DNA of 64,000 nt, taken from a virus. The first letter of the stretch is position 1; each line of letters starts with the position of its first letter. Of the stretch, positions 45,232 through 62,556 are shown piece after piece. The stretch lies in the IMG/VR virus record IMGVR_UViG_3300045978_000375, positions 570 to 64,569 of that record; one strand, given 5' to 3'. A model generated the notes under the pieces. It saw only the letters and a list, made by a program, of their open reading frames with translations. It was not told where the DNA came from and ran no database searches. The position numbers were made by a program, and so were the translations under genes.

Positions 45232-45292
45232 CAGTGGCGAGCGCGTAGCCGGTCGATTTTTCGTACTTCGGCCTCTTTTGGCTATGAAAAAG

Positions 45293-45733: not shown

Positions 45734-45749
45734 CCGAGGGAGACTGCTA

Positions 45750-45765
45750 GGCAATTGTCGTTGCC
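45750..45765. promoter_or_regulatory. operator-like dyad GGCAA-N6-TTGCC upstream of the repressor gene
   Basis: Same dyad as in both cassettes. Lies in the spacer of a possible TTGCGG-N17-CAGTCT-N7-GTG leftward promoter. Confidence 0.5.
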
Positions 45766-45780
45766 GCAAGGCGAACACGC

Positions 45781-45819
45781 TTGACAATATCTGTTGCCAT
45801 GGCAATATGCGTTGCCGTG
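45781..45819 (+). promoter_or_regulatory. PR-like promoter-operator cassette
   Basis: TTGACA-atatctg-TTGCCatGGCAA-tatgcg-TTGCC-GTG. Perfect -35 hexamer, two overlapping dyads, start codon immediately after. Confidence 0.6.
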
Positions 45820-46131
45820 AGCGTAGGTGAGCGAATCGCCCTGGTTCGGGGCTTGTCTGGTCTGTCGGCAGCTGAACTTGGGCGCAGAGCCGGGCTCTCG
45901 AGGGGCACGCTGCCTCTCCTCGAAGCCGGCACGAACAAGCAGCCGGGAGCGAAAACGCTGCTCGCACTGAGCCAGGCGACGGGGGTCCCGATGGAGTGGT
46001 TCTTGGCTGGCACGGGTGACGCACCGACGCCTGAAAGCGTGAAGGCGGCACTCGGAATCTCGAACGCCGAAGACCCATCCCCCGACTCCAACGCCCAGCC
46101 GAACGGCAAGGCGAAGGAGCCGGCAGCGTGA
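45817..46131 (+). CDS. Cro-like XRE-family HTH protein
   Basis: LSAAELGRRAGLSRGTLPLLEAG...LLALSQATGVPMEWFLAG. GTG 45817 preferred by analogy with the PL cassette. ATG 45799 is also possible. Confidence 0.6.
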   Translation: MSVGERIALVRGLSGLSAAELGRRAGLSRGTLPLLEAGTNKQPGAKTLLALSQATGVPMEWFLAGTGDAPTPESVKAALGISNAEDPSPDSNAQPNGKAKEPAA

Positions 46132-46808
46132 GCGCGATTGCCGTCGCCGACGCGAAGCTCCCGACCTCGTACGTGAAGGCGAGGGACGCGCTCGAGAAGT
46201 GCGTCGAGCTCGACGAATGCAAGGAGTGGAAGGACAAGGCCGCCGCGCTCGCCTCGTACGCGAAGCAGGCGGACGATGAGGAGCTCTACAAGTCCGCGAT
46301 GAAGATCAAGGGCCGGGCGGTTCGGCGCATGGGGGAGCTGCTGAAGGAGCTCAACCGACCGGAGCAGGGCGGAAGGCCACCGAAGCCGAAGGAAAACGTG
46401 GGAGCCACCGCCCCCGTTTCGCAGCTTGCGCTCGCCAAAGCAGCCGGCCTCTCCGCTGACCAAGCAAAGCAGGCGATCCGTGTGGCCAACATCCCCAAGC
46501 GGGAGTTCGAGCGGCTCATCGAAGCCGAGGCACCGCCGACCGTAACTGAGCTTGCCAAGATGGGCACCAAGCCCGTCCATCGCACCGCGTCTCACCTCGG
46601 TGGTCGGGACGCCACGGAGTTTTCCGACGCGATCAAGGTGCGCGGTCGCCTGCGCGACCTTGCCGACATCTGCGGAAGCGTGACTCCGACCGCCGCCGTT
46701 CGCGGCTCCCAAGACTACGACCACCCGAAGATGCGCGGCTGGTCCAAGACGATCGCGGCGTGGCTCGAACGGCTCGACGCTGCCCTCGAGAAAGCGAAAG
46801 AGACATGA
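46128..46808 (+). CDS. hypothetical protein with HTH-like segment
   Basis: 226 aa. SQLALAKAAGLSADQAKQAIRVANIP. Confidence 0.45.
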   Translation: MSAIAVADAKLPTSYVKARDALEKCVELDECKEWKDKAAALASYAKQADDEELYKSAMKIKGRAVRRMGELLKELNRPEQGGRPPKPKENVGATAPVSQLALAKAAGLSADQAKQAIRVANIPKREFERLIEAEAPPTVTELAKMGTKPVHRTASHLGGRDATEFSDAIKVRGRLRDLADICGSVTPTAAVRGSQDYDHPKMRGWSKTIAAWLERLDAALEKAKET

Positions 46809-47239
46809 ACGACGCGCAACTAACTGCCCTCGTGCAGAGCGAGGTGGATGCCGCGCTCGATGCTGGAATTCCGGTTCACAAGAACACGGTTCGTAGTCAA
46901 ATCGTTGGAAGGCACTGCGAGCACAGCGATTCAGATTTCGCGCTCGCCTGCGCCCACCACGCGATCGGAGACATCGTTGGGCGCCTGATTCGCAATGCGA
47001 AGAAAGCCGAGGCGGAGGGCCCGGATCCGCAGCTCGTGCTTCCGGGCTACAAGCATTTGCAGCAGCGGTACGCGATCGACCGCGATGGTGAGTCGTACCT
47101 GGTTCGCCTTGAGGACATGACGGTCGAGGAGGGCCGCTCGAAAGCGGCGGCCCTGCGGGTGTTCGCCCAAGGAGCACTGGCGCATGCTGACGAACTCGAC
47201 GCGTACTTCGACAACATCGAAGCCACGGCTGCTCAATAG
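46805..47239 (+). CDS. hypothetical protein
   Basis: ATG 46805 overlapping the upstream TGA. 144 aa. Confidence 0.45.
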   Translation: MNDAQLTALVQSEVDAALDAGIPVHKNTVRSQIVGRHCEHSDSDFALACAHHAIGDIVGRLIRNAKKAEAEGPDPQLVLPGYKHLQQRYAIDRDGESYLVRLEDMTVEEGRSKAAALRVFAQGALAHADELDAYFDNIEATAAQ

Positions 47240-47351
47240 ACCCATGCGCCGCCTCCTCGCCCCTGCGTCCCGCACCCGCAAGAGCTGCTCCTACGTGCTC
47301 CGAGCGAAGCCGAAGAAGAAGCGCGCCAGACGCGCCGAGGAGAACTGAGTC

Positions 47352-48203
47352 ATGGCCATCGAGATCAAGCACCGATTCACAGGCACAGTCCTCTTCAAGA
47401 GCGAAACTGCCAAGAGCACGCGCGAAGCCGTGATCGAGGCGGTTTCCGCGGGCGCCAACCTCGCGCGCGCCGACCTCGCGGGCGCCAACCTCGCGGGCGC
47501 CAACCTCGCGGGCGCCGACCTCGCGGACGCCAACCTCGCGGGCGCCGACCTCGCGGACGCCAACCTCGCGGGCGCCAACCTCGCGGGCGCCAACCTCGCG
47601 CGCGCCGACCTCGCGGGCGCCGACCTCGCGGGCGCCGACCTCGCGGGCGCCAACCTCGCGCGCGCCGACCTCGCGGGCGCCGACCTCGCGGGCGCCGACC
47701 TCGCGGACGCCAACCTCGCGGGCGCCAACCTCGCGGGCGCCGACCTCGCGGGCGCCGACCTCGCGGGCGCCGACCTCGCGGGCGCCCGATCTCTGCCTGC
47801 GGGCACCGAAGCGAAGGACCCTCCAGAGCCCTACGATCGCAACCGAGCGATCGATTACGCCGCACGTGCAGTCAGGTATCGCGAGCGCCACCCGGACGTT
47901 CCAGTCGTCGAGCGGCTCGACAGCAGGATACTCGAAGCCATCACGACCGGCGGCTGCACGCTGGAGATGGGTTCGTGGCACCAGTGCGAAACCACACATT
48001 GTCGTGCGGGCTGGGCGATCCACCTCGCAGGTGAGCCCGGATATGCGCTGGAGCGGCGGTACAGCGCGGAGCACGCAGGGCGGCTGATCTACCTCGTGAG
48101 CACGGGTCGTTGCCCGCATTTTTTCGCGACTAATGAGAGAGCGCTTGAGGATATCCGGCTCTGCGCCGCACGCGAGCAGCAACCCGAGGGAGCAAGCGCG
48201 TAG
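47352..48203 (+). CDS. pentapeptide-repeat protein with Cys/His-containing C-terminal domain
   Basis: 22 consecutive A(G/R/D)A(N/D)L pentapeptides (47448-47777). C-domain contains GSWHQCETTHCRAGW ... GRCPHFF. Confidence 0.85.
   Translation: MAIEIKHRFTGTVLFKSETAKSTREAVIEAVSAGANLARADLAGANLAGANLAGADLADANLAGADLADANLAGANLAGANLARADLAGADLAGADLAGANLARADLAGADLAGADLADANLAGANLAGADLAGADLAGADLAGARSLPAGTEAKDPPEPYDRNRAIDYAARAVRYRERHPDVPVVERLDSRILEAITTGGCTLEMGSWHQCETTHCRAGWAIHLAGEPGYALERRYSAEHAGRLIYLVSTGRCPHFFATNERALEDIRLCAAREQQPEGASA
47448..47777 (+). repeat. 22 tandem near-identical 15-bp units (coding pentapeptide repeats)
   Basis: Units gcgggcgcc(a/g)acctc and variants. A 60-bp higher-order unit is repeated (ARADL AGADL AGADL A.ANL). 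Confidence 0.95.
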
Positions 48204-48458
48204 GTGAAACACTCTCGCAAGCTCGCCATCGTGCCCGCGCTGTCACCGGAGGAACGCCGGGAATGCGAGCGGGACTCCAGGTTCGACGTTGTGAACGGCC
48301 GGCGCGAGCTCGGTCTGACGCAGCTCGGCCTCGCGCAGAAGCTCACGATCTCGGTCTCGAGCGTCGAGGACTACGAGACCGGCAAGACCAAGGTCCCCGG
48401 GTGGGTGCTGAAGGCGATCGAGCGGCTGGTGAAGGCGGCGCGGAGGGAGGCCGCCTGA
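48204..48458 (+). CDS. XRE-family HTH protein
   Basis: GLTQLGLAQKLTISVSSVEDYETGKTKVP. Confidence 0.6.
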   Translation: MKHSRKLAIVPALSPEERRECERDSRFDVVNGRRELGLTQLGLAQKLTISVSSVEDYETGKTKVPGWVLKAIERLVKAARREAA

Positions 48459-48826
48459 TGGCCAAACAAACCAGCCCCCGCATCTCGAGCGCCGCGGCCA
48501 GGCTGCTCGCGAAGCTCAGAGAGTACAGGTACGCGTGGCGCGAAGCAGTTGTCACGCTCGAGTGGCCACGCGGCACGGCGTGGCTCTGCAAGCCCAGTGA
48601 GCTCGTAGAGCTTCTGACGCACGAGCATGAGGCGGAACTTATTCTGCACGCCCTCTGTAGCTCAGCGTCATTCGACGGCTCGGCGCAAAGCGCCGCCCTG
48701 ACTTGGATTCGACGCGACGAGAAGCTGCGCACCGCCGCGGTGCGGGCTGTCGTGCACGACAAGCGCGTCGCGAAAGTCCGCTCCCCGCGGGTGGTCGGGA
48801 AGCGGAAGGGGAGGGCTTTGCGATGA
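48458..48826 (+). CDS. hypothetical protein, paralog A
   Basis: ATG overlaps the upstream TGA. Shares KQTS.RIS.AAA.LLAKLR and RVAKVRSPRV..KRKG termini with 49412-49681. Confidence 0.5.
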   Translation: MAKQTSPRISSAAARLLAKLREYRYAWREAVVTLEWPRGTAWLCKPSELVELLTHEHEAELILHALCSSASFDGSAQSAALTWIRRDEKLRTAAVRAVVHDKRVAKVRSPRVVGKRKGRALR

Positions 48827-49119
48827 AGATTCACATCGTCGGCTTTCCCGTGCGAGTCGGCAATCACCAGCGCCAACTCTGCGCGTGGTGCGGCTACGTG
48901 CTGGTCGACGACAATCTCGAGCAGGTGATGGTCGCACCCAACGAGGACGGTTCTCCTGGCGCAGCTCCCGGTGTCTTTACAATGGGCCAGCTGGTTTCGG
49001 TCTCCGAGGAGTCGGGCTTGCGGTGCATGTCACTACTCGCGCACGTGGACGGAATGCCGCTCCCAGCTGGCTTCTGCGGTGACGATGGGCGCAGGCGAAT
49101 ATGGGCGGTGCAAATATGA
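48823..49119 (+). CDS. hypothetical protein
   Basis: ATGA-coupled. 98 aa. Confidence 0.45.
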   Translation: MKIHIVGFPVRVGNHQRQLCAWCGYVLVDDNLEQVMVAPNEDGSPGAAPGVFTMGQLVSVSEESGLRCMSLLAHVDGMPLPAGFCGDDGRRRIWAVQI

Positions 49120-49415
49120 AATCCGACCTCGTGCTGCTCACCGAATGCCTCGAGTCAGAGCTCGAGGACGAAACCCGCGAGGCGTTCGCCGGCATGCTGG
49201 GCGACATCGAGAGCGGCAAGTGGCGGAAGCTCACGAAGCGTCAGCGTGAGTGGGTCGAGGGCGTCCACGGCCGGCTCGGGCTCGACCCCGGCACCGAGAA
49301 CCTCGTCTCGAGCGGTGCGGTGAAGCCGACAGCTGCCGAGCGCGCGGCGCTTGCCAGTACGCTCGCTAGCCTCGGGCCGAAGCCGCTGAAGCCGCCAACG
49401 CGGAGGAGCGCATGA
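49116..49415 (+). CDS. hypothetical protein
   Basis: ATGA-coupled. 99 aa. Confidence 0.45.
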   Translation: MKSDLVLLTECLESELEDETREAFAGMLGDIESGKWRKLTKRQREWVEGVHGRLGLDPGTENLVSSGAVKPTAAERAALASTLASLGPKPLKPPTRRSA

Positions 49416-49681
49416 ACGCCAGAAAGCAAACCTCGTCCCGCATCTCGGGGGCCGCGGCCAGCCTGCTCGCGAAGCTTCGGAACGTTTCGCCGTGGGAGAT
49501 GATCGTCCGGTCTGACAACACGCGCCGCACAGTCTCCCGCGCCTACCTGCCGCTCTGCACGGTCGGGAAGCTCCGGTCGATACTCGGTAGCGCGCTCGGC
49601 CAAGACGAAACGCCCGGCCAGCGCGTCGCCAAGGTCCGCTCGCCCCGGGTGAAGCGGAAGGGTGGGAGGGCGATGCGCTAA
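49412..49681 (+). CDS. hypothetical protein, paralog B
   Basis: 89 aa. N- and C-termini match 48458-48826 at both DNA and protein level. Confidence 0.5.
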   Translation: MNARKQTSSRISGAAASLLAKLRNVSPWEMIVRSDNTRRTVSRAYLPLCTVGKLRSILGSALGQDETPGQRVAKVRSPRVKRKGGRAMR

Positions 49682-49953
49682 TGCTTGGGTTCAAGCCAAA
49701 CCACGAAATGTGGGCGCGCGTGAACGCTGTCATCATGGGCGAGAACATGGCGGAGGTGACCGTAACCTTCATCAGCGCGCTCTGCTCCATGCTCATCCAG
49801 GCTGGAGCCGCTACTGACGAGGCACACGCACGGGCGCACCTGGCAGCGCTTCTGCTCTCACCCGACTCCTCGGCAAAGGCCGGTTCTCTGCTGCCGCTGC
49901 TCGCGCCGGAGCTCGCGAAGCTACGGCGAGAGGAAGGGGTTTGGATCACATGA
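49681..49953 (+). CDS. hypothetical protein
   Basis: 90 aa, coupled. Confidence 0.4.
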   Translation: MLGFKPNHEMWARVNAVIMGENMAEVTVTFISALCSMLIQAGAATDEAHARAHLAALLLSPDSSAKAGSLLPLLAPELAKLRREEGVWIT

Positions 49954-50564
49954 CGCAAGCTCCGCGGGAACTACGTTGTACGAAGTGCGAGTCGAGCTGG
50001 CACACGGCCGAGCAGCATGATGCGTGCTTGGCGTCGTTCGACGCTGCGCTACAAGCTGGAGCTTTGGCGAAGCAGAGGGTAACGCCAATCTCATCGTCGG
50101 GACTCGTTAGCGACCGTTCGCAACTCGATGAGACGCTGCTTCCGAACGGGCAGCAGAAGTCATACCTCGTGCTCTCGGAGGAGGAGCGAGCGAAAGGGTT
50201 CGTTCGGCCGGTGCGGACGGCGTACCTGCACGTTGGCGTTGCCGGACCTAAGCACCCGACGCGCGATGTTACAGACGAAGAACGCACGCGCTACGGCTGG
50301 GGAACTGGGCCGGACGAGTTCACGAAGTTCGAGGTCTATCCGGAGGGTGCGAACGGGGAAGGTCGCTACTGGACGCAGAACGATCTCGACAAGGTCGGCA
50401 GGGGGTGCGGGACGCGAACGACGATGGCCCTCCCGCTCGCTGAGACGTACGCGCGTAAACCTGGCTTCTACGGTGGCACGTTCTGCTGCGGGTGCCGGAC
50501 GCACCTACCCGTTGGTGCGGATGGCGAGTTCGTCTGGGAAGACGGCTCGCGCGTAGGGACCTGA
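49950..50564 (+). CDS. hypothetical Cys-containing protein
   Basis: ATG 49950 (ATGA overlap). CTKCESSWH ... GCGTRTT ... FCCGCRTH. Confidence 0.5.
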   Translation: MTQAPRELRCTKCESSWHTAEQHDACLASFDAALQAGALAKQRVTPISSSGLVSDRSQLDETLLPNGQQKSYLVLSEEERAKGFVRPVRTAYLHVGVAGPKHPTRDVTDEERTRYGWGTGPDEFTKFEVYPEGANGEGRYWTQNDLDKVGRGCGTRTTMALPLAETYARKPGFYGGTFCCGCRTHLPVGADGEFVWEDGSRVGT

Positions 50565-50567
50565 GCC

Positions 50568-50840
50568 ATGCCACCCACCGCATACCCCCTACACCTGCGC
50601 CGCTCGATGCGACGAGATGGCGCCGCTCGAATGCGCAGCGTGGCAAGAGCGCGCCGGAAAGCGCTGGATGAGGTGCTCGCTTGGCTGGCTGCCCTACTGG
50701 CGATCGTGGCGCTCGGCCTCGCCGTGTGGACGGTCGTAGAGGAGTTCGGTCCGGGTGAGCAGGAGCGGATCCGCTGCGCGCCGACGGAGGTGTGCGGGGA
50801 GGAGCGGCTCGACCGGGGAGCGAGGGGGAGCGATGGCTGA
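50568..50840 (+). CDS. small membrane protein
   Basis: TM LAWLAALLAIVALGLAVW. Confidence 0.45.
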   Translation: MPPTAYPLHLRRSMRRDGAARMRSVARARRKALDEVLAWLAALLAIVALGLAVWTVVEEFGPGEQERIRCAPTEVCGEERLDRGARGSDG

Positions 50841-51030
50841 GCGCCCCAGCGTGGTCGTCCTCGACGTGACGCAGCTCACCCAGGCAGTCGCGGACTACGT
50901 GACGAAGCACTGCCTCATGGCGCCCGGTCCGGTTCGCATCGACTTTCAGATCTATCAAAGCCTGAAAGAGCCAACTCGAATCGAGGCGACGGTAAGGGCG
51001 ACGACGGGGCCGGAGGTGTTGGTTGTCTGA
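50833..51030 (+). CDS. hypothetical small protein
   Basis: Internal ATG overlapping the upstream gene end. 65 aa. Confidence 0.35.
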   Translation: MAERPSVVVLDVTQLTQAVADYVTKHCLMAPGPVRIDFQIYQSLKEPTRIEATVRATTGPEVLVV

Positions 51031-51505
51031 GTTACCGACTCGAGCTCTTTCTCTGTACGCGCCTTGGGCGTGGGCGATCATCTGCGCCGGAAAGGACGTC
51101 GAGAACCGCAACTGGTTTGCGGCGGGACGAGGCTTCTTCGGCGACGCGAAGTTTCGCGGCTCGTTCTGGATTCACGCGAGCCTGTTCGGAGGCGATCGTG
51201 GCCGGAAGCTCGAGGATCTCGAGGACGAGATCAGTTCGATGCTGGATATGGCCAGAGATGCTGGTTGTGATTCGGGCACGCCGGCCGAAGTGCTTCAGTG
51301 GTGCCTCGGGGCGCGCGGCAAGATCGTCGGCTCGGCTCGCGTGACCGGCGCCGTGTCCGCAAGCTCGTCGCCGTGGTTCGTTGGGCCGATGGCGCTTACG
51401 CTGGCGGAGCCGGTGGCATCTCGCCTGCAAGTGCCAGTGCGCGGTGCGCTTGGATTCTGGACGGTATCGCCAGACGTGCTGGCGCAGCTCCGGGAGGTCG
51501 CTTGA
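51023..51505 (+). CDS. ASCH (PUA-like) domain protein
   Basis: LSLYAPWAWAIICAGKDVENRNW contains the G-K-x-x-E-x-R ASCH signature. TTG start 6 nt after GGAGG. Confidence 0.6.
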   Translation: MSELPTRALSLYAPWAWAIICAGKDVENRNWFAAGRGFFGDAKFRGSFWIHASLFGGDRGRKLEDLEDEISSMLDMARDAGCDSGTPAEVLQWCLGARGKIVGSARVTGAVSASSSPWFVGPMALTLAEPVASRLQVPVRGALGFWTVSPDVLAQLREVA

Positions 51506-52122
51506 CCGTCGCCGTCCTCTATTGCGACGAGGGCCGGAACGCTCCCTACGTCAAGCTCAAGGCGGCCGGCGAGGACCTGGACTTGTGGGGAGTCTCGAGG
51601 GACGCGCGCAAGTACGACGGGCCGCATACGGTCGTGGCGCATCCGCCGTGCCGCAACTGGAGCAAGCTTAGCTACCTCGCGAAGGACGATGATAGCGACT
51701 GCGCTCTCCGTGCCATCGATCAGGTTCGCAAGTTCGGTGGGGTACTCGAGCATCCAGCGTCGTCCAGACTCTGGTTGCAGATCAATCTACCGAGCGGCCA
51801 CCGTGACGATTTCGGAGGACGGCGGATTACACTGAACCAAGTCGAGTGGGGGCACGTCGCCAGAAAGCCGACATGGCTCTACCTCGTTGGCGTGTGCTCG
51901 CCGGGCCCGATGCCGCCCCCGCGTGAGCCGACGCACTGGTGCAGCGGGTTTCGGACCGCTGGTAAGTCCTACTCGCCCGCATACTACAAGCAGCGCGGCT
52001 CCGCCGTCCCGCTCGGCATCAAAGTCTGCTCGGCACAGCAGCGCCGCCGCACCCCACCCCTGTTCGCCGAATACCTCGTAAGGCTCGCTCGTGCAGCAGC
52101 GGAAGCTCGGAGGGCAGCGTGA
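51502..52122 (+). CDS. C5-cytosine-methyltransferase-like protein lacking a clear SAM-binding motif I
   Basis: TTG overlapping the upstream TGA. HPPCRNWS (PPC-type motif IV), GGVLEHP (ENV-like), ARKPTWLYLVG (motif VIII-like). The N-terminus LYCDEG sits where F-x-G-x-G is expected. Confidence 0.45.
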   Translation: MTVAVLYCDEGRNAPYVKLKAAGEDLDLWGVSRDARKYDGPHTVVAHPPCRNWSKLSYLAKDDDSDCALRAIDQVRKFGGVLEHPASSRLWLQINLPSGHRDDFGGRRITLNQVEWGHVARKPTWLYLVGVCSPGPMPPPREPTHWCSGFRTAGKSYSPAYYKQRGSAVPLGIKVCSAQQRRRTPPLFAEYLVRLARAAAEARRAA

Positions 52123-52352
52123 GCACGATGACCAAGCGCTACGCCGTGTACCTCCGCGAGAAGCCTGCTTTCCAGGTAGTCAGGGAAGCTCAGTACGCGT
52201 TCGAAGCCTACGAGCTTGCCCGCGCTGAGCTCGCGACGAAGTGGGAGGACTACAGCATCGGGTTTGCCGACTGCGAAGTGGTCGACGTCGAGGAGCAGAG
52301 CCGGGCGCGGGCGGCGCGGCGTGTCGGGGCGGAGAGGGGAGCGCGGGCGTGA
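52119..52352 (+). CDS. hypothetical small protein
   Basis: 77 aa, coupled. Confidence 0.4.
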   Translation: MSTMTKRYAVYLREKPAFQVVREAQYAFEAYELARAELATKWEDYSIGFADCEVVDVEEQSRARAARRVGAERGARA

Positions 52353-52702
52353 ATGACACCCGCCTCCTTTGCCCCGCCGACGTCTGCGAGCGCTTCGGAT
52401 GCTCGCTGCGAAAGGCACTCAAGATCATGCGCGAGGCCGGCGCGCGGAAGTCTGGCTCGATGGTCCGGCTCGAACCTGAGAAACTGGAGGCATGGTGGCT
52501 AGCGCAAAAGGCGACCGCTTCGGCTTCTGGCTCAGGGGACGGACCTGGTACACGTGCGATCCCGTCACCCGCCGCGACGTCTCGACCCGCTGCCGGGACC
52601 TTGAAGCTGCTCGAAGGTGGCGTGCGGCCCGTGAGCGTATTGCAGCCGATCCGGCAATCGCAGTCCAGGCGCTCGCGACGTTCGGGGACGAGTGCAGGAT
52701 GA
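52349..52702 (+). CDS. excisionase-like HTH protein
   Basis: GTG overlapping the upstream TGA. LLCPADVCERFGCSLRKALKIMREAG...VRLEPEKLEAWW. The frame runs 210 nt into the integrase gene. Confidence 0.45.
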   Translation: MNDTRLLCPADVCERFGCSLRKALKIMREAGARKSGSMVRLEPEKLEAWWLAQKATASASGSGDGPGTRAIPSPAATSRPAAGTLKLLEGGVRPVSVLQPIRQSQSRRSRRSGTSAG

Positions 52703-53814
52703 TGCTCGACGCGCTCGAAGCCCTGGGCCGCCCGACGGCCGACTACGAGCACCGGCTCGGGCACTGGACCCGCGTGCTCGGCAACGACTGCCCGCTCTCC
52801 GATGTCGGCCCAGCCGCCGTCGACGCGTTTATCGCGCAGCGCAGCGCCGAGGGGGTTACGAACCACACCATCTCGAAGGAGCTGAAGGCGCTCGTCAGGA
52901 CGCTCCGGCAGGCGAAGCGTGCTGGCCGGTACGCGGGGGCACTTGAGGTCCTGCGCCCGCTCGGCTTCACCGCCGGGTATGTGCCTCGGACACGCACCCT
53001 GACGCTCGTGGAGCTCCAGGTCCTGCTCGGCGAGCTCGAGCCGGAGGAGCGAGCGTTCGTCGTGCTGCTCGTCGCCTTTGGCCTGCGCCGGGGCGAGGCT
53101 GCCCGTGTGCTTCCCTGCGACCTCGATACTGCCAACTGGGTGGCCCGGGTGCGTGGGACGAAGACGGCCGGGGCTCTCCGGGACCTGCCCATCCTCGAGC
53201 CCTTCCGGCCGCTCGTCGAGGCGGTCCTGCCCTACCTGCCGCTCGGCGCCTGGGTGCGCTCGACCCAGTACACGCGGGTCCTCCTCCGGGCGGCGGCGCG
53301 CGCCAAGCTCGAGCCGGTGACGGCGAACGACCTCCGCCGGACCCATGCAACGCTGCTCCGGAACTGGAAGGTGGACCGGGACACGGCCCGGACGCTGCTC
53401 GGGCACTCGCCGAAGTCGCAGCTGCTCGAGACCGTCTACGACAAGCCGAGACCCCACGAGCTCGCTGCTCGCGCCGGCGACCTCTCCGCCCTCACGGTCG
53501 CCCTGGCCCCGATTGCAGAATCACTGCAGTCGGCACCAAAAACATCCACTTCTCTCGGAGAAACCCGCGGCAGTGAACCGCCATGGGGGCCGACCTATAG
53601 CCCCGCCGGGTCTGCCTCGCCAGTGTGTTCGCGGGGTTACGGGCCAGGAACTGGCCGGGAAGAGCCGGACACCAGCGCAGAATCACTGCAGTCGGCTGGC
53701 CCCGCGGCGTGGGCGCTTGAGTTCGCCCGTGAGGCGCTGAACGTCGAGCCGAAGGCGACCATCTTCCTTGGCACCGGCGTGATCCTCCGCCGCAAGAGGA
53801 GGGACGTTGGCTAA
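52492..53814 (+). CDS. int: tyrosine integrase with long C-terminal extension
   Basis: ATG after GGAGG. AFGLRRGEA (R), GTKTAG (K), LRRTHATLL, LLGHS (H), ETVYDK (Y). About 110 further codons cross a repeat-bearing region. Confidence 0.8.
   Translation: MVASAKGDRFGFWLRGRTWYTCDPVTRRDVSTRCRDLEAARRWRAARERIAADPAIAVQALATFGDECRMMLDALEALGRPTADYEHRLGHWTRVLGNDCPLSDVGPAAVDAFIAQRSAEGVTNHTISKELKALVRTLRQAKRAGRYAGALEVLRPLGFTAGYVPRTRTLTLVELQVLLGELEPEERAFVVLLVAFGLRRGEAARVLPCDLDTANWVARVRGTKTAGALRDLPILEPFRPLVEAVLPYLPLGAWVRSTQYTRVLLRAAARAKLEPVTANDLRRTHATLLRNWKVDRDTARTLLGHSPKSQLLETVYDKPRPHELAARAGDLSALTVALAPIAESLQSAPKTSTSLGETRGSEPPWGPTYSPAGSASPVCSRGYGPGTGREEPDTSAESLQSAGPAAWALEFAREALNVEPKATIFLGTGVILRRKRRDVG
53515..53534 (+). 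repeat. 20-bp direct repeat copy 1 (gcagaatcactgcagtcggc)
   Basis: Exact second copy at 53677-53696. Contains the internal dyad TGCAG-aatca-CTGCA. Confidence 0.9.
53677..53696 (+). repeat. 20-bp direct repeat copy 2
   Basis: Identical to 53515-53534. 162 bp apart, both inside the int ORF tail. Confidence 0.9.
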
Positions 53815-54043
53815 CGTCGCGAGCCTGCTCGAGGCGCGTCGGAAGCGCCAGGCGAAGGCCGAGGCGACGCTGCCGCGTCCTCCCGTCGGGCATTCCATCC
53901 AGTCTGGCGTGGGGACGGTGACGGGCATCTTTGCGACGGCCGACGACAGCGTCGTGTTTGTCGTGTCGGCGGACGAGGCCTTTGCAATTGCCGATGCCTG
54001 GTACCGGGCGGCGCGGGCGGCGAAGGAGGCGGAACGTGGCTGA
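53807..54043 (+). CDS. hypothetical protein
   Basis: TTG start overlapping the int stop. 78 aa. Confidence 0.4.
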   Translation: MANVASLLEARRKRQAKAEATLPRPPVGHSIQSGVGTVTGIFATADDSVVFVVSADEAFAIADAWYRAARAAKEAERG

Positions 54044-54212
54044 GATGCTCGAGGTCGGGGCCGACGCGATTGCTCGCCAGATCTTCGACCTCGCCGTCCG
54101 CGCAATTCTTGACGGCCATGCGTCGCCCGATCAGGACTTCCGTGCGCACTGGCAGCGGCTGATTCACGAGACGGCAAAGCACTACCGCGAGGGGAGGCAC
54201 GGCGTCGGATGA
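54036..54212 (+). CDS. hypothetical small protein
   Basis: GTG 54036 or ATG 54045. Coupled downstream. Confidence 0.35.
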   Translation: MAEMLEVGADAIARQIFDLAVRAILDGHASPDQDFRAHWQRLIHETAKHYREGRHGVG

Positions 54213-54418
54213 TGACGTACCGCTGCTCAGGCTGCCAGAACATGATTCAGAGCGGCTTCCTCTGCCGTAGGTGCATCGGGCGATCGGTGGCAGACTTGCC
54301 CACCTTCCACGCGAGCGCCATCACCGCGGCCATCAAGCGCGATGGCTGCAACGGCCCCTGCACGGTACCCGGCTGTACTGTCTGCACCGGCGAGATCGCG
54401 GCGCGGGAGGCGCGCTGA
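54209..54418 (+). CDS. Cys-rich small protein
   Basis: CSGCQ...CRRC...CNGPCTVPGCTVC. Confidence 0.45.
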   Translation: MMTYRCSGCQNMIQSGFLCRRCIGRSVADLPTFHASAITAAIKRDGCNGPCTVPGCTVCTGEIAAREAR

Positions 54419-54690
54419 TGCTTTCCGACCGCGAGACCATCCGCCGTCTCCGCGCCGCCTCCCGCCGGAAGCCCACCGTCCGTGAGCTCTGCTGCCCGGA
54501 CTGCGGCGGTGAGATCGAGCTCCGAGGCGGCTGGCTGGTTTGCCAGACGTTCGAGTGCTTCTCGACGTTCAAGACGCTCGCCGAGCTCGCCGTGAGGGCA
54601 TCCCCCGAGCCCCCGAGCCCCCGAGCCCCCGAGCCCCCGAGCCCCCGGCCAGTGATCCGGCTCGCCTTTGAAGAACTTCACCTCGACTGA
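54418..54690 (+). CDS. zinc-ribbon-like protein with repeat-encoded Pro-rich tail
   Basis: CCPDCGG...CQTFEC. The C-terminus is encoded by the 8-nt tandem repeat. Confidence 0.45.
   Translation: MLSDRETIRRLRAASRRKPTVRELCCPDCGGEIELRGGWLVCQTFECFSTFKTLAELAVRASPEPPSPRAPEPPSPRPVIRLAFEELHLD
54602..54647 (+). repeat. octanucleotide tandem repeat (cccccgag) x5 plus a partial unit
   Basis: Five exact units at 54602-54641, partial at 54642-54647. Confidence 0.95.
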
Positions 54691-54707
54691 CCGAAGGAGA
54701 CCAACGA

Positions 54708-55619
54708 ATGCTCGCTACCAAAAAAGGGATTGAAATCAACCGCGAGGAGCTCTGGGCGCTCCTCGCCTTCACGGGGGACGGCGAGCAGCACTCGTGCGTC
54801 CATTTCCGCGTCAACGGCTCGGCCAAGCTCGAAGCGGCCGCGACGGACGGCAAGCGCTCGGTCGAGTGCGTGGCGCCGTCCGAAAACGCCGTACCGGGCG
54901 AGTGGGCGATCGATGCTGAGTTCCTGGAGCTTTGCCGGAACGCCTGCGACGCTCCCGAGAAGTCCATCCTGATCCGCCTCTCTTCGGCTGGCGTGCGTGA
55001 CGCCCACGTGGTCTCGAAGGACGGGGAGGTGATTGCCCCGATCGGTTGGCACCGCGCCGCCTCTACCTCCCAGGTGACCATGACCGACGTCATCACGGGC
55101 CTTAGGGTGCCGGCAGACGGGAAGCACACCGGCTCGTGGTGCGCCATAGACCCCGCTGCCGCGCTCCGTGGCCTCTCCCGCGTGAGGGTGGCGGCCGACG
55201 ACTGCCCCATCACCATCTATCCACCGAGCGAGCCTACTGCCCCGCTCCATTTCGAGTGCCGTTCTGACAGAGGGCACTGGAAGGGAGCGATCGTCCCCGA
55301 GCGCGTTCTTGGGCCGGGCAGCGAAGCAGACGAGCCCCCGGCGCCTGACGAAGGCGCCCCCGGACGGAGGAACCGCACGGCTCAGCTCGACCTCGAGGAC
55401 GCCGCGAAAGCGAAGCGCGCGAAGGAACAGGCCGGAAGCGACGACTCGGTCATCAGCGACGAGGAGGCCGAGGCTCTGAAGGCCGAGCAGCGCGATGGTG
55501 CCGGCCTCACCGAGGAGGAGCGCGAGAACTTCGTCGAGCACGGTGACAAGGACAAGCCGCTCGCAACACAGAAGAAACGACGCGGGCGGAAACCGAAGGC
55601 AGCAGCGGCAGACGCCTGA
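54708..55619 (+). CDS. hypothetical protein with beta-clamp-like ATDGKR segment and acidic/basic tail
   Basis: KLEAAATDGKRSVEC resembles the ATDGHRL motif of DnaN. 303 aa. Confidence 0.35.
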   Translation: MLATKKGIEINREELWALLAFTGDGEQHSCVHFRVNGSAKLEAAATDGKRSVECVAPSENAVPGEWAIDAEFLELCRNACDAPEKSILIRLSSAGVRDAHVVSKDGEVIAPIGWHRAASTSQVTMTDVITGLRVPADGKHTGSWCAIDPAAALRGLSRVRVAADDCPITIYPPSEPTAPLHFECRSDRGHWKGAIVPERVLGPGSEADEPPAPDEGAPGRRNRTAQLDLEDAAKAKRAKEQAGSDDSVISDEEAEALKAEQRDGAGLTEEERENFVEHGDKDKPLATQKKRRGRKPKAAAADA

Positions 55620-56170
55620 TGCTCTTCGTTGGTATTGACCATAGCCTGACGGCCTTCGGCCTTGCGGCGGTCTCCCCCGATTGGGGGCTCGACTTCCGCA
55701 AGGTCCGGCGCGTCACGCTCACGACGAGCCCGGAGCATGGGCCAGAGGTTGCCCGCCGCGCGTTGCTCGCCCGGGACGTGGCGACCTGGGTGTCGAACGT
55801 CGCCACGGCGTCTGGCTGCCCGCTCTCGGCCGTGCGGGTCTTCATCGAGGGCGGCGTGTTCATGCGCGGCAAATCCAACACGATCCGCTCGCAAGAGCGC
55901 CTCGCCGCGGCGGTCGAGCACGAGCTCTATACCCAACACCAGATCCAGGTGGCGGTGGCGCAGCAGCGGGCCGTACGGACGCTTTTCATGGGCTCGAGCC
56001 TCAGCGGTGGCCGTGGCGCTGGCGACGCGGCTCAGGGCCTCCTGCGCGCTGTGGCGCCTGATGTCGCCGGGTGGGACGAGGCTGAGCTCGACGCGTTCCT
56101 CGTCGCGAACTGGGCGCTGTCAGAAGCCGCGGAGACGTTCGTATCCGTTGCACCGGAAAGGGCAGCCTGA
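55619..56170 (+). CDS. RuvC-like Holliday junction resolvase
   Basis: MLFVGIDHSLTAFG (D), VFIEGGV (E), C-terminal acidic AELDAF. 183 aa. Confidence 0.5.
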   Translation: MLFVGIDHSLTAFGLAAVSPDWGLDFRKVRRVTLTTSPEHGPEVARRALLARDVATWVSNVATASGCPLSAVRVFIEGGVFMRGKSNTIRSQERLAAAVEHELYTQHQIQVAVAQQRAVRTLFMGSSLSGGRGAGDAAQGLLRAVAPDVAGWDEAELDAFLVANWALSEAAETFVSVAPERAA

Positions 56171-56227
56171 TGGCGGACGGCTCCATCGAGCAGAATCGCA
56201 AGGCCTCTTGCGGCCGGAGGTAGCACC

Positions 56228-57262
56228 TTGATCACCGTCAAGGAAGAATTTCTCAGCGACGACAAGACCCAGCGTGCCATCAAGCTCGGCGGCTACGAGG
56301 TCATCGCCATGTGGCTCGCGATGAAGTGCTATGCGGCCTCCCACGCGACGGATGGATTCATTCCTGCCGAGGACGTGGAAAGCCTTCCTGGCGCTCCCAG
56401 GAAGGCTCGGGCTGCGCTGAAGGCCCTCGTCGAGTGCGGGCGACTGCAAGCGGATGGTAAGCGCGGAGCGGGCCTTGTGGACCCCGTTGAGCACGGCTGG
56501 CAGCTCCACGATTATCTCGACCACGCGGCGAGCAGCGACGAGATCGAGGTCCGGCGGAAGAAGGCGCGCGAGCAGAAGGCAAACCGCCGCGCCGAGCTCC
56601 GTCGCCAAGCAGATGCCGGACAGAGTCCGCAGACAGCGCCGCCGGACAGACACGGACAAAGTCCGCGGACATCAAGCGGACAGTCTACCGGACCTCGCGC
56701 GCCAGCGGGCACCCGCCCGCCCGCGTACGGGCGCACGCGTGATCCCAGCCCAGCCCAGCCCAGCCCAGCCCAGCCCATAGCAGGCAGCGGCATCACGGTT
56801 CGGGCAGGTCGGCAGAAAAAGGCCCGTCCAATCGTGGATTCTGGCCTGCTCGTGGTGTCTTTGCTGGCTAGGGATTGGGTAATTCCTGAGGCGTTTTGGG
56901 AGTACGCAAGCGAGCTTGGCCTCAACGCGAACGAGTACGAGAGCGTCCTCGCCGACTACCGCGAAAAGGTCACTCGCTCTGGTTCTGCGACTTGGCTTGC
57001 GGACAAGCTTTGCCGGTACATCGAAGCCGCGCACCGACCTGAGCCTGAGCCAGCCGCCCACCGCCCACCGGTCATCCTGCAGCGTGAGATCAAACCGATC
57101 GAGATGGGCGAGGTCCCGGCCGAGGTGCTCGCCCGAATCAGCCCCCAGCGCGCGCTACGAGGTGTCCAGAAGAGCCGCGAGCAGCAGATTGAGGAATTGA
57201 GGGCCTACGAGGAAAACGCGTCTAATGGGCGCCTAGAGCCCGAGGAGGCGACGGGTGGCTGA
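56228..57262 (+). CDS. replication initiator / helicase-loader-like protein
   Basis: TTG 7 nt after GGAGG. wHTH-like N-domain. Directly upstream of and overlapping dnaB. Contains the (cccag)6 repeat. Confidence 0.45.
   Translation: MITVKEEFLSDDKTQRAIKLGGYEVIAMWLAMKCYAASHATDGFIPAEDVESLPGAPRKARAALKALVECGRLQADGKRGAGLVDPVEHGWQLHDYLDHAASSDEIEVRRKKAREQKANRRAELRRQADAGQSPQTAPPDRHGQSPRTSSGQSTGPRAPAGTRPPAYGRTRDPSPAQPSPAQPIAGSGITVRAGRQKKARPIVDSGLLVVSLLARDWVIPEAFWEYASELGLNANEYESVLADYREKVTRSGSATWLADKLCRYIEAAHRPEPEPAAHRPPVILQREIKPIEMGEVPAEVLARISPQRALRGVQKSREQQIEELRAYEENASNGRLEPEEATGG
56744..56773 (+). repeat. pentanucleotide tandem repeat (cccag) x6
   Basis: Six exact units. Encodes PSPAQPSPAQP in the linker of CDS 56228-57262. 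Confidence 0.95.
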
Positions 57263-58667
57263 CGGGCAGCGCTCGGGCATCACGCCGCGCTTCGACCTCG
57301 ACGCCGAGGGGCAGCTGCTCGGCGCTGCGATGGTGGATCAGGGCGCCGCGCTCGAGCTCGTCGAGCTGCTCGATGAGACGGACTATTACGCCGACTCGAA
57401 CCGGATGGTGCATCGAGCCGTGCGGGAGCTTTGTGCCCGCGGTGAGACGGCGGACCTTGTGTCGGTGCGGGTGTGGCTCGATTCGATGGGGCTGCTCGCC
57501 CGGGTGGGCGGAGCGCCCTACCTCGTCCAGCTCCTGAACGTCCCGTCGCTCGTACACGTCGAGCAGCACGCGAGGCTCGTGCGCGGGCTCGCGCGCGTGC
57601 GGGCTGCCGAGAACACGTTCAAAACGCTCGCCGCTGAGGCGCGGACGGCGGAGATGCCGGACGTCGACGCGTGGCTCGAAGGGGCCGAGATGCGGGCCTA
57701 CCAGGCCACCGCGAACCTCGTCTCCAAGCGGCAAACTGTCTCGTCCTACGCGGAATTCGGCGCCATCCTCGACGCCGGCTGGGCGGAGGCGCAGGCGCGA
57801 AAAGAACGCACGCTCGGGACGGCCACCGGATACGCCCGGCTCGACGAGCACACGCTCGGCATGCAGCCAGGGCAGCTCTGGTTTCTCGGAGCCCGCCCCG
57901 GGCAGGGGAAGAGCGCCTGGGGCCAGCAGCTCGCCGAGTACGTCGCTGAGCGCGGCGGCGGTCATGACGGCGTCGTCTTTCTCAGCATGGAGATGAAACG
58001 CCCCGAGCTCGTGCTCAGGACCTACGCCCGCCATTCGAACCAGAGCACGCGCGGGATCCAGCGTCGAAAGCTCGATCAGACCGGTTGGACTGCCTACCTC
58101 GACGCCCGCGAGCGCGCCTCCAAGTGGCCGATCGTCGTGGACGACGAGCCGCGTCTCACGCCGCTCCGCATCCGCTCGAAGGTCCTTCGGCACCAAGCTT
58201 CCCTCCGAAAGCGCTACCCGAACGCCCGGCTCTCGCTCGTGCTCGTCGATTACGTGCAGCTCCTCCATGCCGACACGGAGCGAAAAAACACGACGCGCGC
58301 GACCGAGCTCGGCGAGATCACGCGGGCCCTGAAGGTGATGGCCGGGGAGTTTGGATGCACGTTCCTCGTGCTCTCGCAGCTCACGCGGCCGAGCGACAAG
58401 AGCAAGATGCCGCCGGCGCCGACCCTCTTCGACTTCCGGGACTCGGGCTCGATCGAGGCCGATGGCGACGTCGTGCTCGGCCTCCATCGCCCCGATCAGT
58501 ACCGAAAGCCCGGGACGGATCCGACCGGGATCTGCGAGGTGCACGTCCTGAAGACGCGCGGCGCCGGGGAGTGCGCGTTCGAGCTGCAGTGGACAGGGCG
58601 CTCGACGCGGTTCGACAACTTGGACGAGCGGAGCGACCAGCTCTGGAAACCGCAGGAGGACGCATGA
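57255..58667 (+). CDS. dnaB: replicative DNA helicase (DnaB family)
   Basis: GARPGQGKS (Walker A), LVLVDYVQLL (Walker B), FLVLSQLTR, FRDSGSIEADGDVV. Confidence 0.85.
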   Translation: MADGQRSGITPRFDLDAEGQLLGAAMVDQGAALELVELLDETDYYADSNRMVHRAVRELCARGETADLVSVRVWLDSMGLLARVGGAPYLVQLLNVPSLVHVEQHARLVRGLARVRAAENTFKTLAAEARTAEMPDVDAWLEGAEMRAYQATANLVSKRQTVSSYAEFGAILDAGWAEAQARKERTLGTATGYARLDEHTLGMQPGQLWFLGARPGQGKSAWGQQLAEYVAERGGGHDGVVFLSMEMKRPELVLRTYARHSNQSTRGIQRRKLDQTGWTAYLDARERASKWPIVVDDEPRLTPLRIRSKVLRHQASLRKRYPNARLSLVLVDYVQLLHADTERKNTTRATELGEITRALKVMAGEFGCTFLVLSQLTRPSDKSKMPPAPTLFDFRDSGSIEADGDVVLGLHRPDQYRKPGTDPTGICEVHVLKTRGAGECAFELQWTGRSTRFDNLDERSDQLWKPQEDA

Positions 58668-58837
58668 AGGACGGGCGAATCAAGGTGCCGGACAACCTCC
58701 AGCCGCGAATCGATCGGCTCGTGAAGGACTACGCGAAACGGCTCGGTGAGACCGAGGACCGGGCCCGGCGCGCGGTCGAGCTCGGGCTCCTGCAGCGCGG
58801 GATCGAGGCCTTCGAGCAGGAGGCGAGAGGCCAATGA
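58664..58837 (+). CDS. hypothetical small protein
   Basis: ATGA-coupled to dnaB. 57 aa. Confidence 0.35.
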   Translation: MKDGRIKVPDNLQPRIDRLVKDYAKRLGETEDRARRAVELGLLQRGIEAFEQEARGQ

Positions 58838-59136
58838 ACGAGTCCGAAATCTGCGCGTCGTGCGGGCATTGGGAGGCAACTCACCACCCCGATCTTCCCG
58901 CTGCGGGCAGTTGTTGGGGTTCGACGTGCGGGTGCGAGCGCTTCGTACCGCCCACCGAAACCTGCGGGATCCGGCTCTACCTCTGCCGTTGTGGTCACTA
59001 CCGGGGCAGGCACGACGAGCGAGGCCGATGCCTGGAGCACGTGCACGTCCGTGGCTCGTTTTTCGGCGGCGTATTCAGCCGGTGCTCGTGCGCCGGGTTC
59101 GTGCTGCGAGATTGCGCGACGCTCGGGGCGGCATGA
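58834..59136 (+). CDS. Cys/His-rich small protein
   Basis: CASCGHWEATHH...CGCERF...CRCGHYRGRH...CSCAGF. Confidence 0.45.
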   Translation: MNESEICASCGHWEATHHPDLPAAGSCWGSTCGCERFVPPTETCGIRLYLCRCGHYRGRHDERGRCLEHVHVRGSFFGGVFSRCSCAGFVLRDCATLGAA

Positions 59137-59405
59137 GCAAGGACGGCGACATCACCACCCTCGAGGGCATGACGCCCGAGGAGGCACTCATCCGGGGTCT
59201 CGTCTCAGTGCCGCCGGCAGACGTCGACCGCGTGATGGCGATGACGCCCGAAGAGCGCCTCGAGTGGGCTCGAGGGCAGCTCGTCAGCACACCGCTCCCG
59301 AACGGCTCCGAGCTCGTGCAGCCCGTCGGGCCGCTCATGGAGCGCGGGCTCGAACGGCGGCGGGAGAAGAACCGAGCTCGAAGGCGTCGGCAGGGTCGGC
59401 ACTGA
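59133..59405 (+). CDS. hypothetical protein
   Basis: ATGA-coupled. 90 aa. Confidence 0.4.
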   Translation: MSKDGDITTLEGMTPEEALIRGLVSVPPADVDRVMAMTPEERLEWARGQLVSTPLPNGSELVQPVGPLMERGLERRREKNRARRRRQGRH

Positions 59406-60280
59406 TGGCCATGCCAGCGCTCCCGGCCAGTATCCATGAGCCTCCCCCGCTCGACGAGGTGATCCTGCGCCTTGCCCAAACGATGGCGGAGAGCATCGGC
59501 GAGCAGGTGGGGGACGTGCTCGCGCGTACGAAGAGCAAGTCGTGGATGCTCGGCCGCCTCCGCCGAGCCTACCAGGGCACGAAGACCGACGACGAGATCC
59601 GGGCCGCCATGGACCGGCTCGCCCGGCAGCACCACCGGTCTGCCCCTCGCACCGAGGTGACGGTGACCGAGCTCCCAAGAGAGCAACGCTGGCTGGAATA
59701 CTCCCAAAACCCCATCTGGCAGTCCCGCGTGCTCGAGCTCGGCGGGATCCTCGCCTACCCGATGACCGCCCGAGAGATCATCGACCGAGCGGCAGTCGTG
59801 CTCCGGTGGAACGAAAACCCGGTCAAGCAGTCGCTCGCGGCCTGCGAGATCTACGGCGAAGCCTGGTACGATCCGGCATTCAACTTCTGGCAGCGAACCC
59901 CTGAAAGGATCCTGATGGCGAACAGCAAGGGCAAAACGGTGCGGGTGCAGCGGCACCTGCCGGTCAAGGTAACGGACGAGGGCGAGCTCAAGCGGCGCCT
60001 GAGCAGGATCGACACCGAGGCCGAAGCGCTCGAAGCGAGCCTTGCTGAGGAGAGGCGCCGCGTCGCGGCCGAGCTCAAACGGCTCGTCGACAAGCGCGAG
60101 CGCACGCTCGAGAGCTGGAAGACTGGGGTCGAAACCCAGCTCGTCGAGTGCGAGGAACGCTGGTCCTACCAGGATCGCGAGGTCACGACCGTGCGCAAGG
60201 ACACGGGCGAGGTGGTCGAGCGGCGTGAGATGACGGCCGAGGAGCTTCAGCTCCGGATGCCCGAGCAGGCGACTACCTGA
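59405..60280 (+). CDS. hypothetical protein with C-terminal coiled coil
   Basis: ATG overlapping the upstream TGA. 291 aa. Last gene of the rightward operon. Confidence 0.45.
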   Translation: MAMPALPASIHEPPPLDEVILRLAQTMAESIGEQVGDVLARTKSKSWMLGRLRRAYQGTKTDDEIRAAMDRLARQHHRSAPRTEVTVTELPREQRWLEYSQNPIWQSRVLELGGILAYPMTAREIIDRAAVVLRWNENPVKQSLAACEIYGEAWYDPAFNFWQRTPERILMANSKGKTVRVQRHLPVKVTDEGELKRRLSRIDTEAEALEASLAEERRRVAAELKRLVDKRERTLESWKTGVETQLVECEERWSYQDREVTTVRKDTGEVVERREMTAEELQLRMPEQATT

Positions 60281-60286
60281 GAGTCG

Positions 60287-62490: not shown

Positions 62491-62556
62491 GTCGGTGTCC
62501 CTTTCACCGGCCGGCCCCGGGCAGCGCCAACTGCGCCGGGGCGACCTTCAAAACCT

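Follow-up and report, generated by a model that had tools for sequence, protein, structure and literature searches.

That the attachment site of a temperate phage (attP) can lie inside its own integrase gene (int) has been known since the work on myxophage Mx8 in the 1990s. The bacterial attachment site (attB) of Mx8 is in tRNA-Asp, and an attB in a tRNA gene is typical of Mx8 and Mx9 without strictly defining them. In Mx8, attP is located within int and integration creates a new 3' end for the gene (PMC6070905); the integrated form is shorter, with an altered C-terminus and an intact catalytic domain (PMC6070905, PMC4383910). The archaeal integrases of the Sulfolobus spindle-shaped virus (SSV) type, as described in PMC7253208 and PMC4383910, also have the recombination site within the int open reading frame (ORF) and the gene altered by integration, which according to PMC7253208 splits it into two parts. 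In the integration-dependent immunity systems of BPs, Brujita and cluster P phages, attP is in the repressor gene, and both Int and the repressor (Rep) carry C-terminal degradation tags (PMC3694055). The stretch of DNA analysed here (the window: 64,000 nt, positions 570 to 64,569 of IMG/VR record IMGVR_UViG_3300045978_000375) comes from a phage from an uncultured soil bacterium. The phage is temperate, with a genome of 64.4 kb and a Polyangiaceae-like host, and very probably has a recombination module of the Mx8 type.

In this module the int reading frame runs through the whole attP site, and recombination within a short core joins the phage to an attB between an FKBP/SlyD-like gene and the gene for a small acidic protein. 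The prophage thus encodes a 369-aa Int with an intact catalytic domain, and excision restores the 440-aa form. In the mechanism proposed beyond this, two direct repeats would act as arm sites for the Int N-domain, the C-terminal segment lost on integration would influence how active Int is or in which direction it works, an effect reported for IntP and IntX of Mx8, and an upstream 117-aa winged helix-turn-helix (HTH) protein would act as excisionase or recombination directionality factor (RDF). The parts of the locus, read against the prophage integrase P0001 and two metagenomic contigs that cross the prophage junctions (L001 and L002), are as follows.

52492..53814, + strand: int in its phage (IntP-like) form, 440 aa, classed as a lambda-type tyrosine integrase by PF00589, a 34-sequence alignment, an AlphaFold2 (AF2) model and Foldseek; an arm-binding-like N-domain is followed by core-binding and catalytic domains, the latter with Tyr316, and by a tail of 124 aa containing attP
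53437..53439, + strand: catalytic tyrosine codon (Tyr316, ETVYDK), the invariant alignment column Y316
53515..53534, + strand: direct repeat 1, putative P-arm (arm-type) Int-binding site; an exact copy that stays with int at the FKBP-side prophage junction (L001)
53568..53579, + strand: imperfect leftward extension of attP/attB similarity (CGGCAG-T-GAA versus CGGCAG-GAA), a possible core-type site suggested by gapped BLAST and by-eye alignment
53580..53593, + strand: exact common core, GCCATGGGGGCCGA, encoding PWGP (Int residues 364-367), from base-by-base comparison of attP, both prophage junctions and the reconstructed attB
53594..53814, + strand: Int C-terminal segment (residues 368-440), present in the attP form only and replaced in the prophage by a host-read Ile-Thr-stop, from the P0001 comparison and the junction sequence
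53677..53696, + strand: direct repeat 2, putative P'-arm (arm-type) site; an exact copy found at the far junction beside the host acidic-protein gene (L002 8969-8988)
53701..53745, + strand: family-conserved C-terminal helix, residues 404-418 (PAAWALEFAREALNV), consensus A.ALA.AA..V, at alignment columns 540-557; a helix in the AF2 model with a predicted local distance difference test score (pLDDT) of ~60

The best database relative of Int is P0001, a protein of 369 aa that is 100% identical to residues 1-367 and then ends in Ile-Thr-stop. Its contig, L001 (80.8 kb), matches the window at 100% identity over 42492-53593 and continues into chromosomal genes: an FKBP/SlyD-like isomerase, aconitase, an FGE-sulfatase, a peptidase S41 (PDZ protease) and Ser/Thr kinases. 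This FKBP-int junction recurs in four more independent JGI and Logan assemblies, again with the 369-aa int product. The opposite junction, reached via a gene downstream of int, is in L002 (from a 122-kb contig), which reads from host genes (an extracytoplasmic function (ECF) sigma factor, an HtrA-like protease, DUF1844 and a 154-aa acidic protein) through the core into window 53580-64000, then through a 442-nt stretch into window 1-1177. Because L001 equals the window through 53593 and L002 is exact from 53580, the common core is 53580-53593, and the crossover must lie within it. The core is located between the two repeats, 45 bp past repeat 1 and 83 bp ahead of repeat 2, and one of the repeats is retained at each prophage junction; weaker, gapped similarity between attP and attB reaches past the core on both sides. 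An earlier note on this DNA, made from the letters alone, had placed attP inside int and had suggested looking for host sequence shared with 53480-53800. Such sequence exists, in the form of the 14-bp core in metagenome junction contigs, and the junctions put it at Int codons 364-367, between the repeats as predicted. The repeats themselves were considered as crossover sites or as a target-site duplication, and both options were rejected since the junction lies between them.

The same contigs settle the state of the phage DNA. The 64,000 nt of the window form the end of a contig of 64,662 bp (L003), for which arithmetic implies a 220-bp terminal overlap. Since L002 joins window 53580-64000 via 442 nt to window 1-1177, the window represents a genome of 64,442 bp that is circularly permuted and in the attP state, the unintegrated configuration that the earlier note had deduced. 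This is not a known cultured phage, as megablast and tblastn searches against 50,697 phage genomes gave no match. The source contig of L004, Ga0491415_0000177, is 64,456 bp long (the genome plus 14) and its first base is window 53580, the first base of the core; the junction contigs L040 and L041 (3.9 and 3.8 kb), from the same sample series, end at most 131 nt into the phage. These contig ends look like assembly-graph branching where attP and junction forms coexist, as if the prophage were excising in situ.

What does the host site look like? The attB is the junction of two protein-coding genes: the stop of the FKBP/SlyD-like gene, a 13-nt spacer, and the start of the 154-aa acidic-protein gene. 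Reconstructed on the host coding strand it reads ...GGAGC TAG GTAATCGGCCCCC ATG GCC ATT CC..., and the stretch can also be written as the sequence around ...GCTAGGTAATCGGCCCCCATGGCCATTCC.... Nine of the 14 core nucleotides are the end of the spacer and the other five (ATGGC) begin the acidic-protein gene, the start codon of which is therefore regenerated from phage DNA. Two relatives, L044 (the Polyangiaceae metagenome-assembled genome (MAG) GCA_036503835.1) and L045 (a farmland contig), have an uninterrupted order of aconitase, FKBP, small acidic gene, DUF1844, HtrA and ECF sigma, with a spacer nearly identical to that of the reconstructed attB (L044 differs at only two bases). At the level of sequence and gene order, this arrangement validates the reconstruction. 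Together with the source names of relatives, the synteny also places the host in or near the Polyangiaceae. The expectation of the earlier note that attB would be a tRNA 3' end did not hold: no tRNA was detected in the window, in L001 or in the attP region, nor at either prophage junction, and the window and attP region likewise gave no tmRNA or Rfam element. On the host side (L002 8413-8877 with its flanks, and the window from 53594 on), the prophage parts aconitase-FKBP from the genes for the acidic protein, DUF1844 and the HtrA-like protease; in the uninterrupted relatives these downstream genes seem to share one orientation and to be closely packed. A sigma-70-like promoter reading out of the attP region or the phage end was not found.

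Int has the features of a tyrosine recombinase. The Pfam Phage_integrase family (PF00589) matches residues 174-309 (E 7e-9; 36.1 bits, cut-off 27.1), and the catalytic signature R...K...H-x-x-R...H/W...Y is present, with Asn279 (NDLRRTH) at the His-II position as a variant of the canonical form. R199, K224, R282, H305 and Y316 are invariant in the alignment of 34 homologues. The AF2 model (mean pLDDT 82) shows an N-domain of strands 13-15, 18-22 and 29-31 with a helix at 37-52 (pLDDT >90), a sheet plus helix like that of lambda Int, followed by core-binding and catalytic domains and a confident helix at 332-347. Foldseek searches with this model find full-length lambda Int (1z1b/1z1g/5j0n), Tn1549 Int and Brujita Int as the best PDB matches, aligning 334-363 columns with full-length lambda Int. 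The predicted architecture, an N-terminal arm-binding domain plus core-binding and catalytic domains, is that of a heterobivalent lambda-type integrase. The earlier note had remarked that the frame continues past the catalytic tyrosine, which is correct, with the codon at 53437 rather than near 53450 and a continuation of 124 codons rather than about 110. After Tyr316 come the helix at 332-347 and repeat 1, then, ~45 bp further on, the 14-bp core; another ~83 bp separate the core from repeat 2, which is followed by the C-terminal helix and a basic end.

Integration therefore swaps the last 73 residues of Int for two, and the prophage protein consists of residues 1-367 plus Ile-Thr. The crossover falls 48 codons past Tyr316; the truncated protein lacks the terminal helix and basic end, but its folded catalytic parts are complete, with all catalytic residues and the helix at 332-347. 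An exchange of the Int C-terminus as in Mx8 had been anticipated by the earlier note, together with a comparison of lysogen and phage forms, and the two forms (369 aa versus 440 aa) do differ after residue 367. The stop codon of the truncated gene is supplied by a host CTAG palindrome. At L001 11107-11110 this palindrome holds the TAG stop of the prophage int (+) and that of the convergent host FKBP-like gene (-), the two genes overlapping by 3 nt tail to tail. In the phage form the tail must be translated, as no stop codon intervenes, and by analogy with Mx8 the lost segment may modulate Int activity or directionality. Lysogen contigs also have a 63-aa ORF called at 53623-53814, which is the orphaned int 3' end read from an in-frame GTG; it is probably an annotation artefact, though it carries repeat 2 and the conserved C-terminal helix.

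The repeats stand out in the window. Both copies read GCAGAATCACTGCAGTCGGC, exactly and at the positions reported by the earlier note, and a search allowing up to 3 mismatches across the 64-kb window returned these 2 matches only, versus 0.01 expected; one copy is detectable per arm. The dyad TGCAG-aatca-CTGCA that had been ascribed to each copy is complete in copy 1 only, as copy 2 is preceded by C, and the dyad common to both is GCAG-AATCA-CTGC. A visibly lower guanine plus cytosine (GC) content had also been described for the region. Total GC shows only a mild dip, to 0.66-0.68 in the repeat region versus 0.69-0.76 in the int body, and the change is clear by codon position: for first, second and third positions GC is.75/.49/.90 over the int body,.62/.74/.56 from one repeat to the other and.68/.53/.89 over the final 38 codons. 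Composition is thus not coding-like between the repeats, where GC at third positions (GC3) falls from 0.90 to 0.56, and is coding-like again after repeat 2, in the int frame. We infer that the repeats are arm-type sites bound by the N-terminal three-stranded-sheet domain of Int.

Relatives of Int indicate that this design is not confined to one phage. A protein search gave 124 homologues, 120 of them listed, at 31-63% identity apart from P0001. Among those listed, 98 of the 120 are at least 400 aa long, which implies a tail of roughly at least 80 aa past the Tyr. In more distant members the tails contain unmistakable translated segments of tRNA genes (for example REDSNLRPTAPEA, ADFEIRTRDLRFTKP, PVAQWIEQRFPKP and FLSRRSHVRIVPGA), and in the clade of the window the corresponding element is PWGP. 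Integrated copies in MAGs of Polyangiaceae, Myxococcales and Deltaproteobacteria have an int ORF that ends inside a complete tRNA-Phe, tRNA-Asn or tRNA-Met gene; viral-contig copies, in the attP state, have no complete tRNA. An Rfam scan of 10 related loci gave one weak partial tRNA match, in L018 between its repeats, the fragments being too short for the model. Relatives in the attP state also have a pair of direct repeats around the core, and their distance to the Tyr codon is similar:

L012: repeat pair of 21 bp, spacing 184 nt
L018 and L021: repeat pair of 21 bp, spacing 184 nt
L024: repeat pair of 18 bp, spacing 194 nt
L025: repeat pair of 23 bp, spacing 227 nt
L028: repeat pair of 14 bp, spacing 184 nt
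L011 and L013: repeat pair of 10-11 bp, spacing 175 nt

The spacing in relatives is often not a multiple of three, and the repeat is therefore a DNA element and not a peptide repeat; a protein-level reading was rejected on this ground. In the four closest phages (L034-L037) the block CCATGGGGGC is the sole invariant part of the tail, and it is invariant in 5 related phages while its flanks diverge. The repeats co-vary within each genome, with TCGCTACAG in both copies in L034 and CGTGGAA in both in L037, as one would expect if a single protein read both sites and evolved along with them.

Upstream of int is a small gene that overlaps it, conserved in relatives and largely as the earlier note had described it:

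52349 (GTG)..52702, + strand: xis-like (RDF-like) ORF, 117 aa, with a winged HTH at residues ~5-57 and a C-terminal ~70 aa in the int +1 frame
52492..52702, + strand: xis/int dual-coding overlap of 211 nt (not 210), covering the arm-binding-like domain of Int, residues 1-70

Within the overlap, GC3 of the int frame drops from 0.90 to 0.74. Orthologues of the xis-like protein in L034-L037 share 47-62% identity, stop at equivalent positions and overlap int by 208-220 nt. In 23 relatives, the most distant with ~27% Int identity, a +1 frame that is already open ahead of int continues into it, ending at int codon 61-76 in 22 of them and at codon 135 in the remaining one; the rest of int has 0.0236 +1 stops per codon. 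Shuffling synonymous codons with the Int protein held fixed gives a probability of ~0.55 per locus of no +1 stop in 60 codons, and all 23 are open; the product over the 23 loci, which are not independent, is 1e-6. The overlap is very probably kept by selection, judging from these sequence comparisons, with part of the signal coming from the amino-acid composition of the Int N-domain. A single-sequence AF2 model of the protein has the topology H-H-beta-beta-H (helix, helix, hairpin, helix) and a disordered tail. Matches are weak throughout: the TIGR01764 'excisionase' model is hit by the L034 orthologue only (E 0.077, sub-threshold, full model length), and Foldseek returns RacA, MerR-type proteins, BldC and Pukovnik Xis, all at E >= 0.3. 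No Pfam match was obtained at E <= 0.01, and a profile search of PDB gave nothing meaningful. Position, size, topology and the sub-threshold matches make an excisionase or RDF a plausible identity for this protein. An HTH domain fused to the Int N-terminus was rejected as an explanation of the ORF, as an int-frame stop lies 4 codons upstream of the int ATG. Gene callers missed the xis-like ORF in every locus, leaving an uncalled gap of ~140 nt upstream of int.

How closely does this locus follow the described systems? Like Mx8, it has attP in the 3' part of int, a C-terminus that is exchanged on integration, a catalytic domain that stays whole, an int embedded among early genes, and a myxobacterial host. 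A small HTH gene upstream (uoi in Mx8, annotated MerR-like in GenBank) overlaps int in both, although the frame of the overlap differs, and no similarity was found between the xis-like protein and Uoi. The int tail of Mx8 (L007) has GTGACAGCG repeats at 6369-6390 and 6581-6591, about 200 nt apart, with TGTGACAGCGG twice in tandem and CGTGACAGCGC ~200 nt downstream. Read by eye, the Mx8 repeats flank a tRNA-like stretch of the Int tail, the same anatomy as in the window. The two differ in that attB of the window phage is a protein-gene junction and its host is Polyangiaceae-like, not Myxococcus. An hhalign comparison of the two integrases gives only 69% probability, over the generic integrase fold, and sequence does not support placing Int in the Mx8 Int lineage, the relationship being a remote one at profile level. 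The Mx8 GACAG(C/T) motif resembles the ends of family repeats (GCGACAGTC in L012, CCTACAGTC in L018 and CTGCAGTC in the window), a resemblance that may reflect a common mode of arm-site recognition despite undetectable pairwise Int similarity.

The lambda-type integrases (lambda, Tn916/Tn1549, L5/Brujita) share the three predicted domains with an N-terminal sheet and helix, direct-repeat arm-like sites on both sides of the core, and a small winged-HTH gene upstream. Unlike the window phage, lambda and most relatives have attP outside int, and integration leaves their int as it was; the window phage is also distinguished by its one detectable repeat per arm and by Asn at His-II. A suicidal integrase of the SSV type was rejected, given the distance of the crossover from Tyr316 and the complete catalytic protein in P0001. 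Integration-dependent immunity offers a likeness in that attP is inside a coding sequence and the viral and prophage proteins differ at the C-terminus. It was rejected as a description of this locus, where attP is in int and not in a repressor and Int ends in RRKRRDVG.

Could the read-through tail be functionally neutral? The arrangement of sites would then be real, attP would lie just downstream of a complete ~350-aa integrase, the frame would be open by chance to 53814 in a 70% GC genome, and truncation would have no regulatory consequence. GC-rich DNA has few stop codons, the stretch from repeat 1 to repeat 2 lacks coding-type composition and is predicted to be disordered, and neither a catalytic residue nor the confident helix at 332-347 is missing from the prophage form, all of which would suit a neutral tail. 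Against it stand the long tails in 98 of the 120 listed homologues, the return of GC3 to 0.89 over the 38 codons after repeat 2 in the int frame, and the A.ALA.AA..V helix motif, which in the 34-sequence alignment is conserved down to ~37% identity. Differences among relatives after repeat 2 are also mostly synonymous: in a post-attP block of 14 codons, synonymous versus non-synonymous changes number 10 versus 2 between L034 and L035, 8 versus 3 between L034 and L036, and 6 versus 5 between L035 and L036. We consider a neutral tail unlikely. Somewhat less likely again is that the repeats are not arm sites of Int but are bound by a host architectural factor or by the xis-like protein, or matter only as the repeated peptide ESLQS. 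In the window phage the repeat spacing of 162 nt is a multiple of three and both copies translate to AESLQSA, and the small dyad in each repeat would suit a dimeric HTH protein. The spacings of 175, 184, 194, 208 or 227 nt in relatives are out of frame and put the constraint on the DNA, however, and Xis sites usually cluster on one arm only, whereas here the core has a copy to its left and another to its right, both in the same orientation, which is what the P and P' arms of a heterobivalent integrase should look like; the lambda-like N-terminal domain of Int seen by AF2 and Foldseek argues in the same direction. Finally, the junctions might be assembly chimeras, or the repeats the target-site duplication of a small element with attP elsewhere. 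All the evidence does come from metagenome assemblies, and several contigs break at or near the core. Yet the identical junction occurs in at least five independent assemblies from two pipelines, the same 14 bp are found in both junction types, the two host flanks lie side by side in related genomes that are uninterrupted there, and in relatives the segment between the repeats keeps its position and holds the invariant core, which leaves this explanation with hardly any credibility.

The Mx8-type reading itself has a number of observations to contend with. The exact core is only 14 bp. AF2 predicts residues 352-402, which hold the core, to be disordered and gives the helix at 404-418 a pLDDT of only ~60, and much of the tail may be tolerated read-through, given that codon-position GC between the repeats is non-coding-like. 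The exact reconstructed attB (28 nt) had 0 matches in metagenome contigs, and the unoccupied site of the exact host strain was not found, all 8 contigs with the identical FKBP protein being lysogen junctions. The xis-like protein is without a significant family match. Window Int shows no detectable similarity to Mx8 Int by BLASTP (E 0.36), and tblastn found no match in the 50,697 phage genomes.

The principle of attP inside int is already known from Mx8; what is new here is a different and apparently large integrase family and a target that is not a tRNA. In bacteria the design has so far been anchored mainly on Mx8 and Mx9, and the window supplies for it an attP, both prophage junctions and a synteny-validated attB. 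It appears to be conserved across a family remote from Mx8 Int, in phages of Polyangiaceae and Myxococcales with many attB specificities. A bolder model, which we regard as speculative and more probably wrong than right, is that this large, hitherto undescribed integrase family of phages of Polyangia and other myxobacteria, with more than 100 members, uses integration as a reversible covalent switch. Members in the attP form may read through a P-arm repeat, the core and a P'-arm repeat into the conserved C-terminal helix, and integration may delete that module (about a quarter of members ending in an ssrA-like -AA) and thereby change Int stability or directionality. An xis gene dual-coded over ~70 codons with the arm-binding domain of Int may couple the synthesis and evolution of both proteins, and in the clade of the window, the start codon of a protein gene of the host may have taken the place of tRNA genes as the target.

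C-termini in -AA (RRAA, RGAA, VAA and similar) occur in 22 of the 98 full-length homologues (from the set P0002-P0120), versus 2.0 expected from tail composition, and a C-terminal A in 43 of the 98 versus 14 expected, counts that ignore phylogenetic kinship. These ends lie downstream of attP, and integration would remove them; they resemble the ssrA-like ClpXP tags on Int and Rep of mycobacteriophage BPs (PMC3694055). The window Int (...RRKRRDVG) has no -AA, and the degradation-tag analogy with BPs-like phages is a lead for the -AA relatives only.

Polyangiaceae and myxobacteria of the Sorangium type are important natural-product producers, and the int-attP cassettes are candidates for integration tools in them; in Myxococcus, vectors of the Mx8/Mx9 type are standard (PMC11610982). 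Prophage finders should allow for an int that runs across non-tRNA att sites, and the overlapping xis gene, which escapes gene callers, holds a similar lesson for annotation.

As to host range, L028 (DATGDQ010000238.1, a 2.1-kb contig) belongs to a Gemmatimonadaceae MAG, and the other genome matches are to Polyangiaceae, Myxococcales, Byssovorax and 'Deltaproteobacteria'; the label of L028 could be due to binning contamination of a short contig or to a wider host range. Elsewhere in the window, the gene tables show a 283-aa pentapeptide-repeat protein between HTH-type regulators upstream of int (47352-48203, equal to L001 4861-5712), and a ParB_N/HTH_ParB gene beside genes for a RadC-like protein, a DnaB-type helicase and a DAM-like methyltransferase at ~60.5-62 kb (equal to L002 16043-17394).

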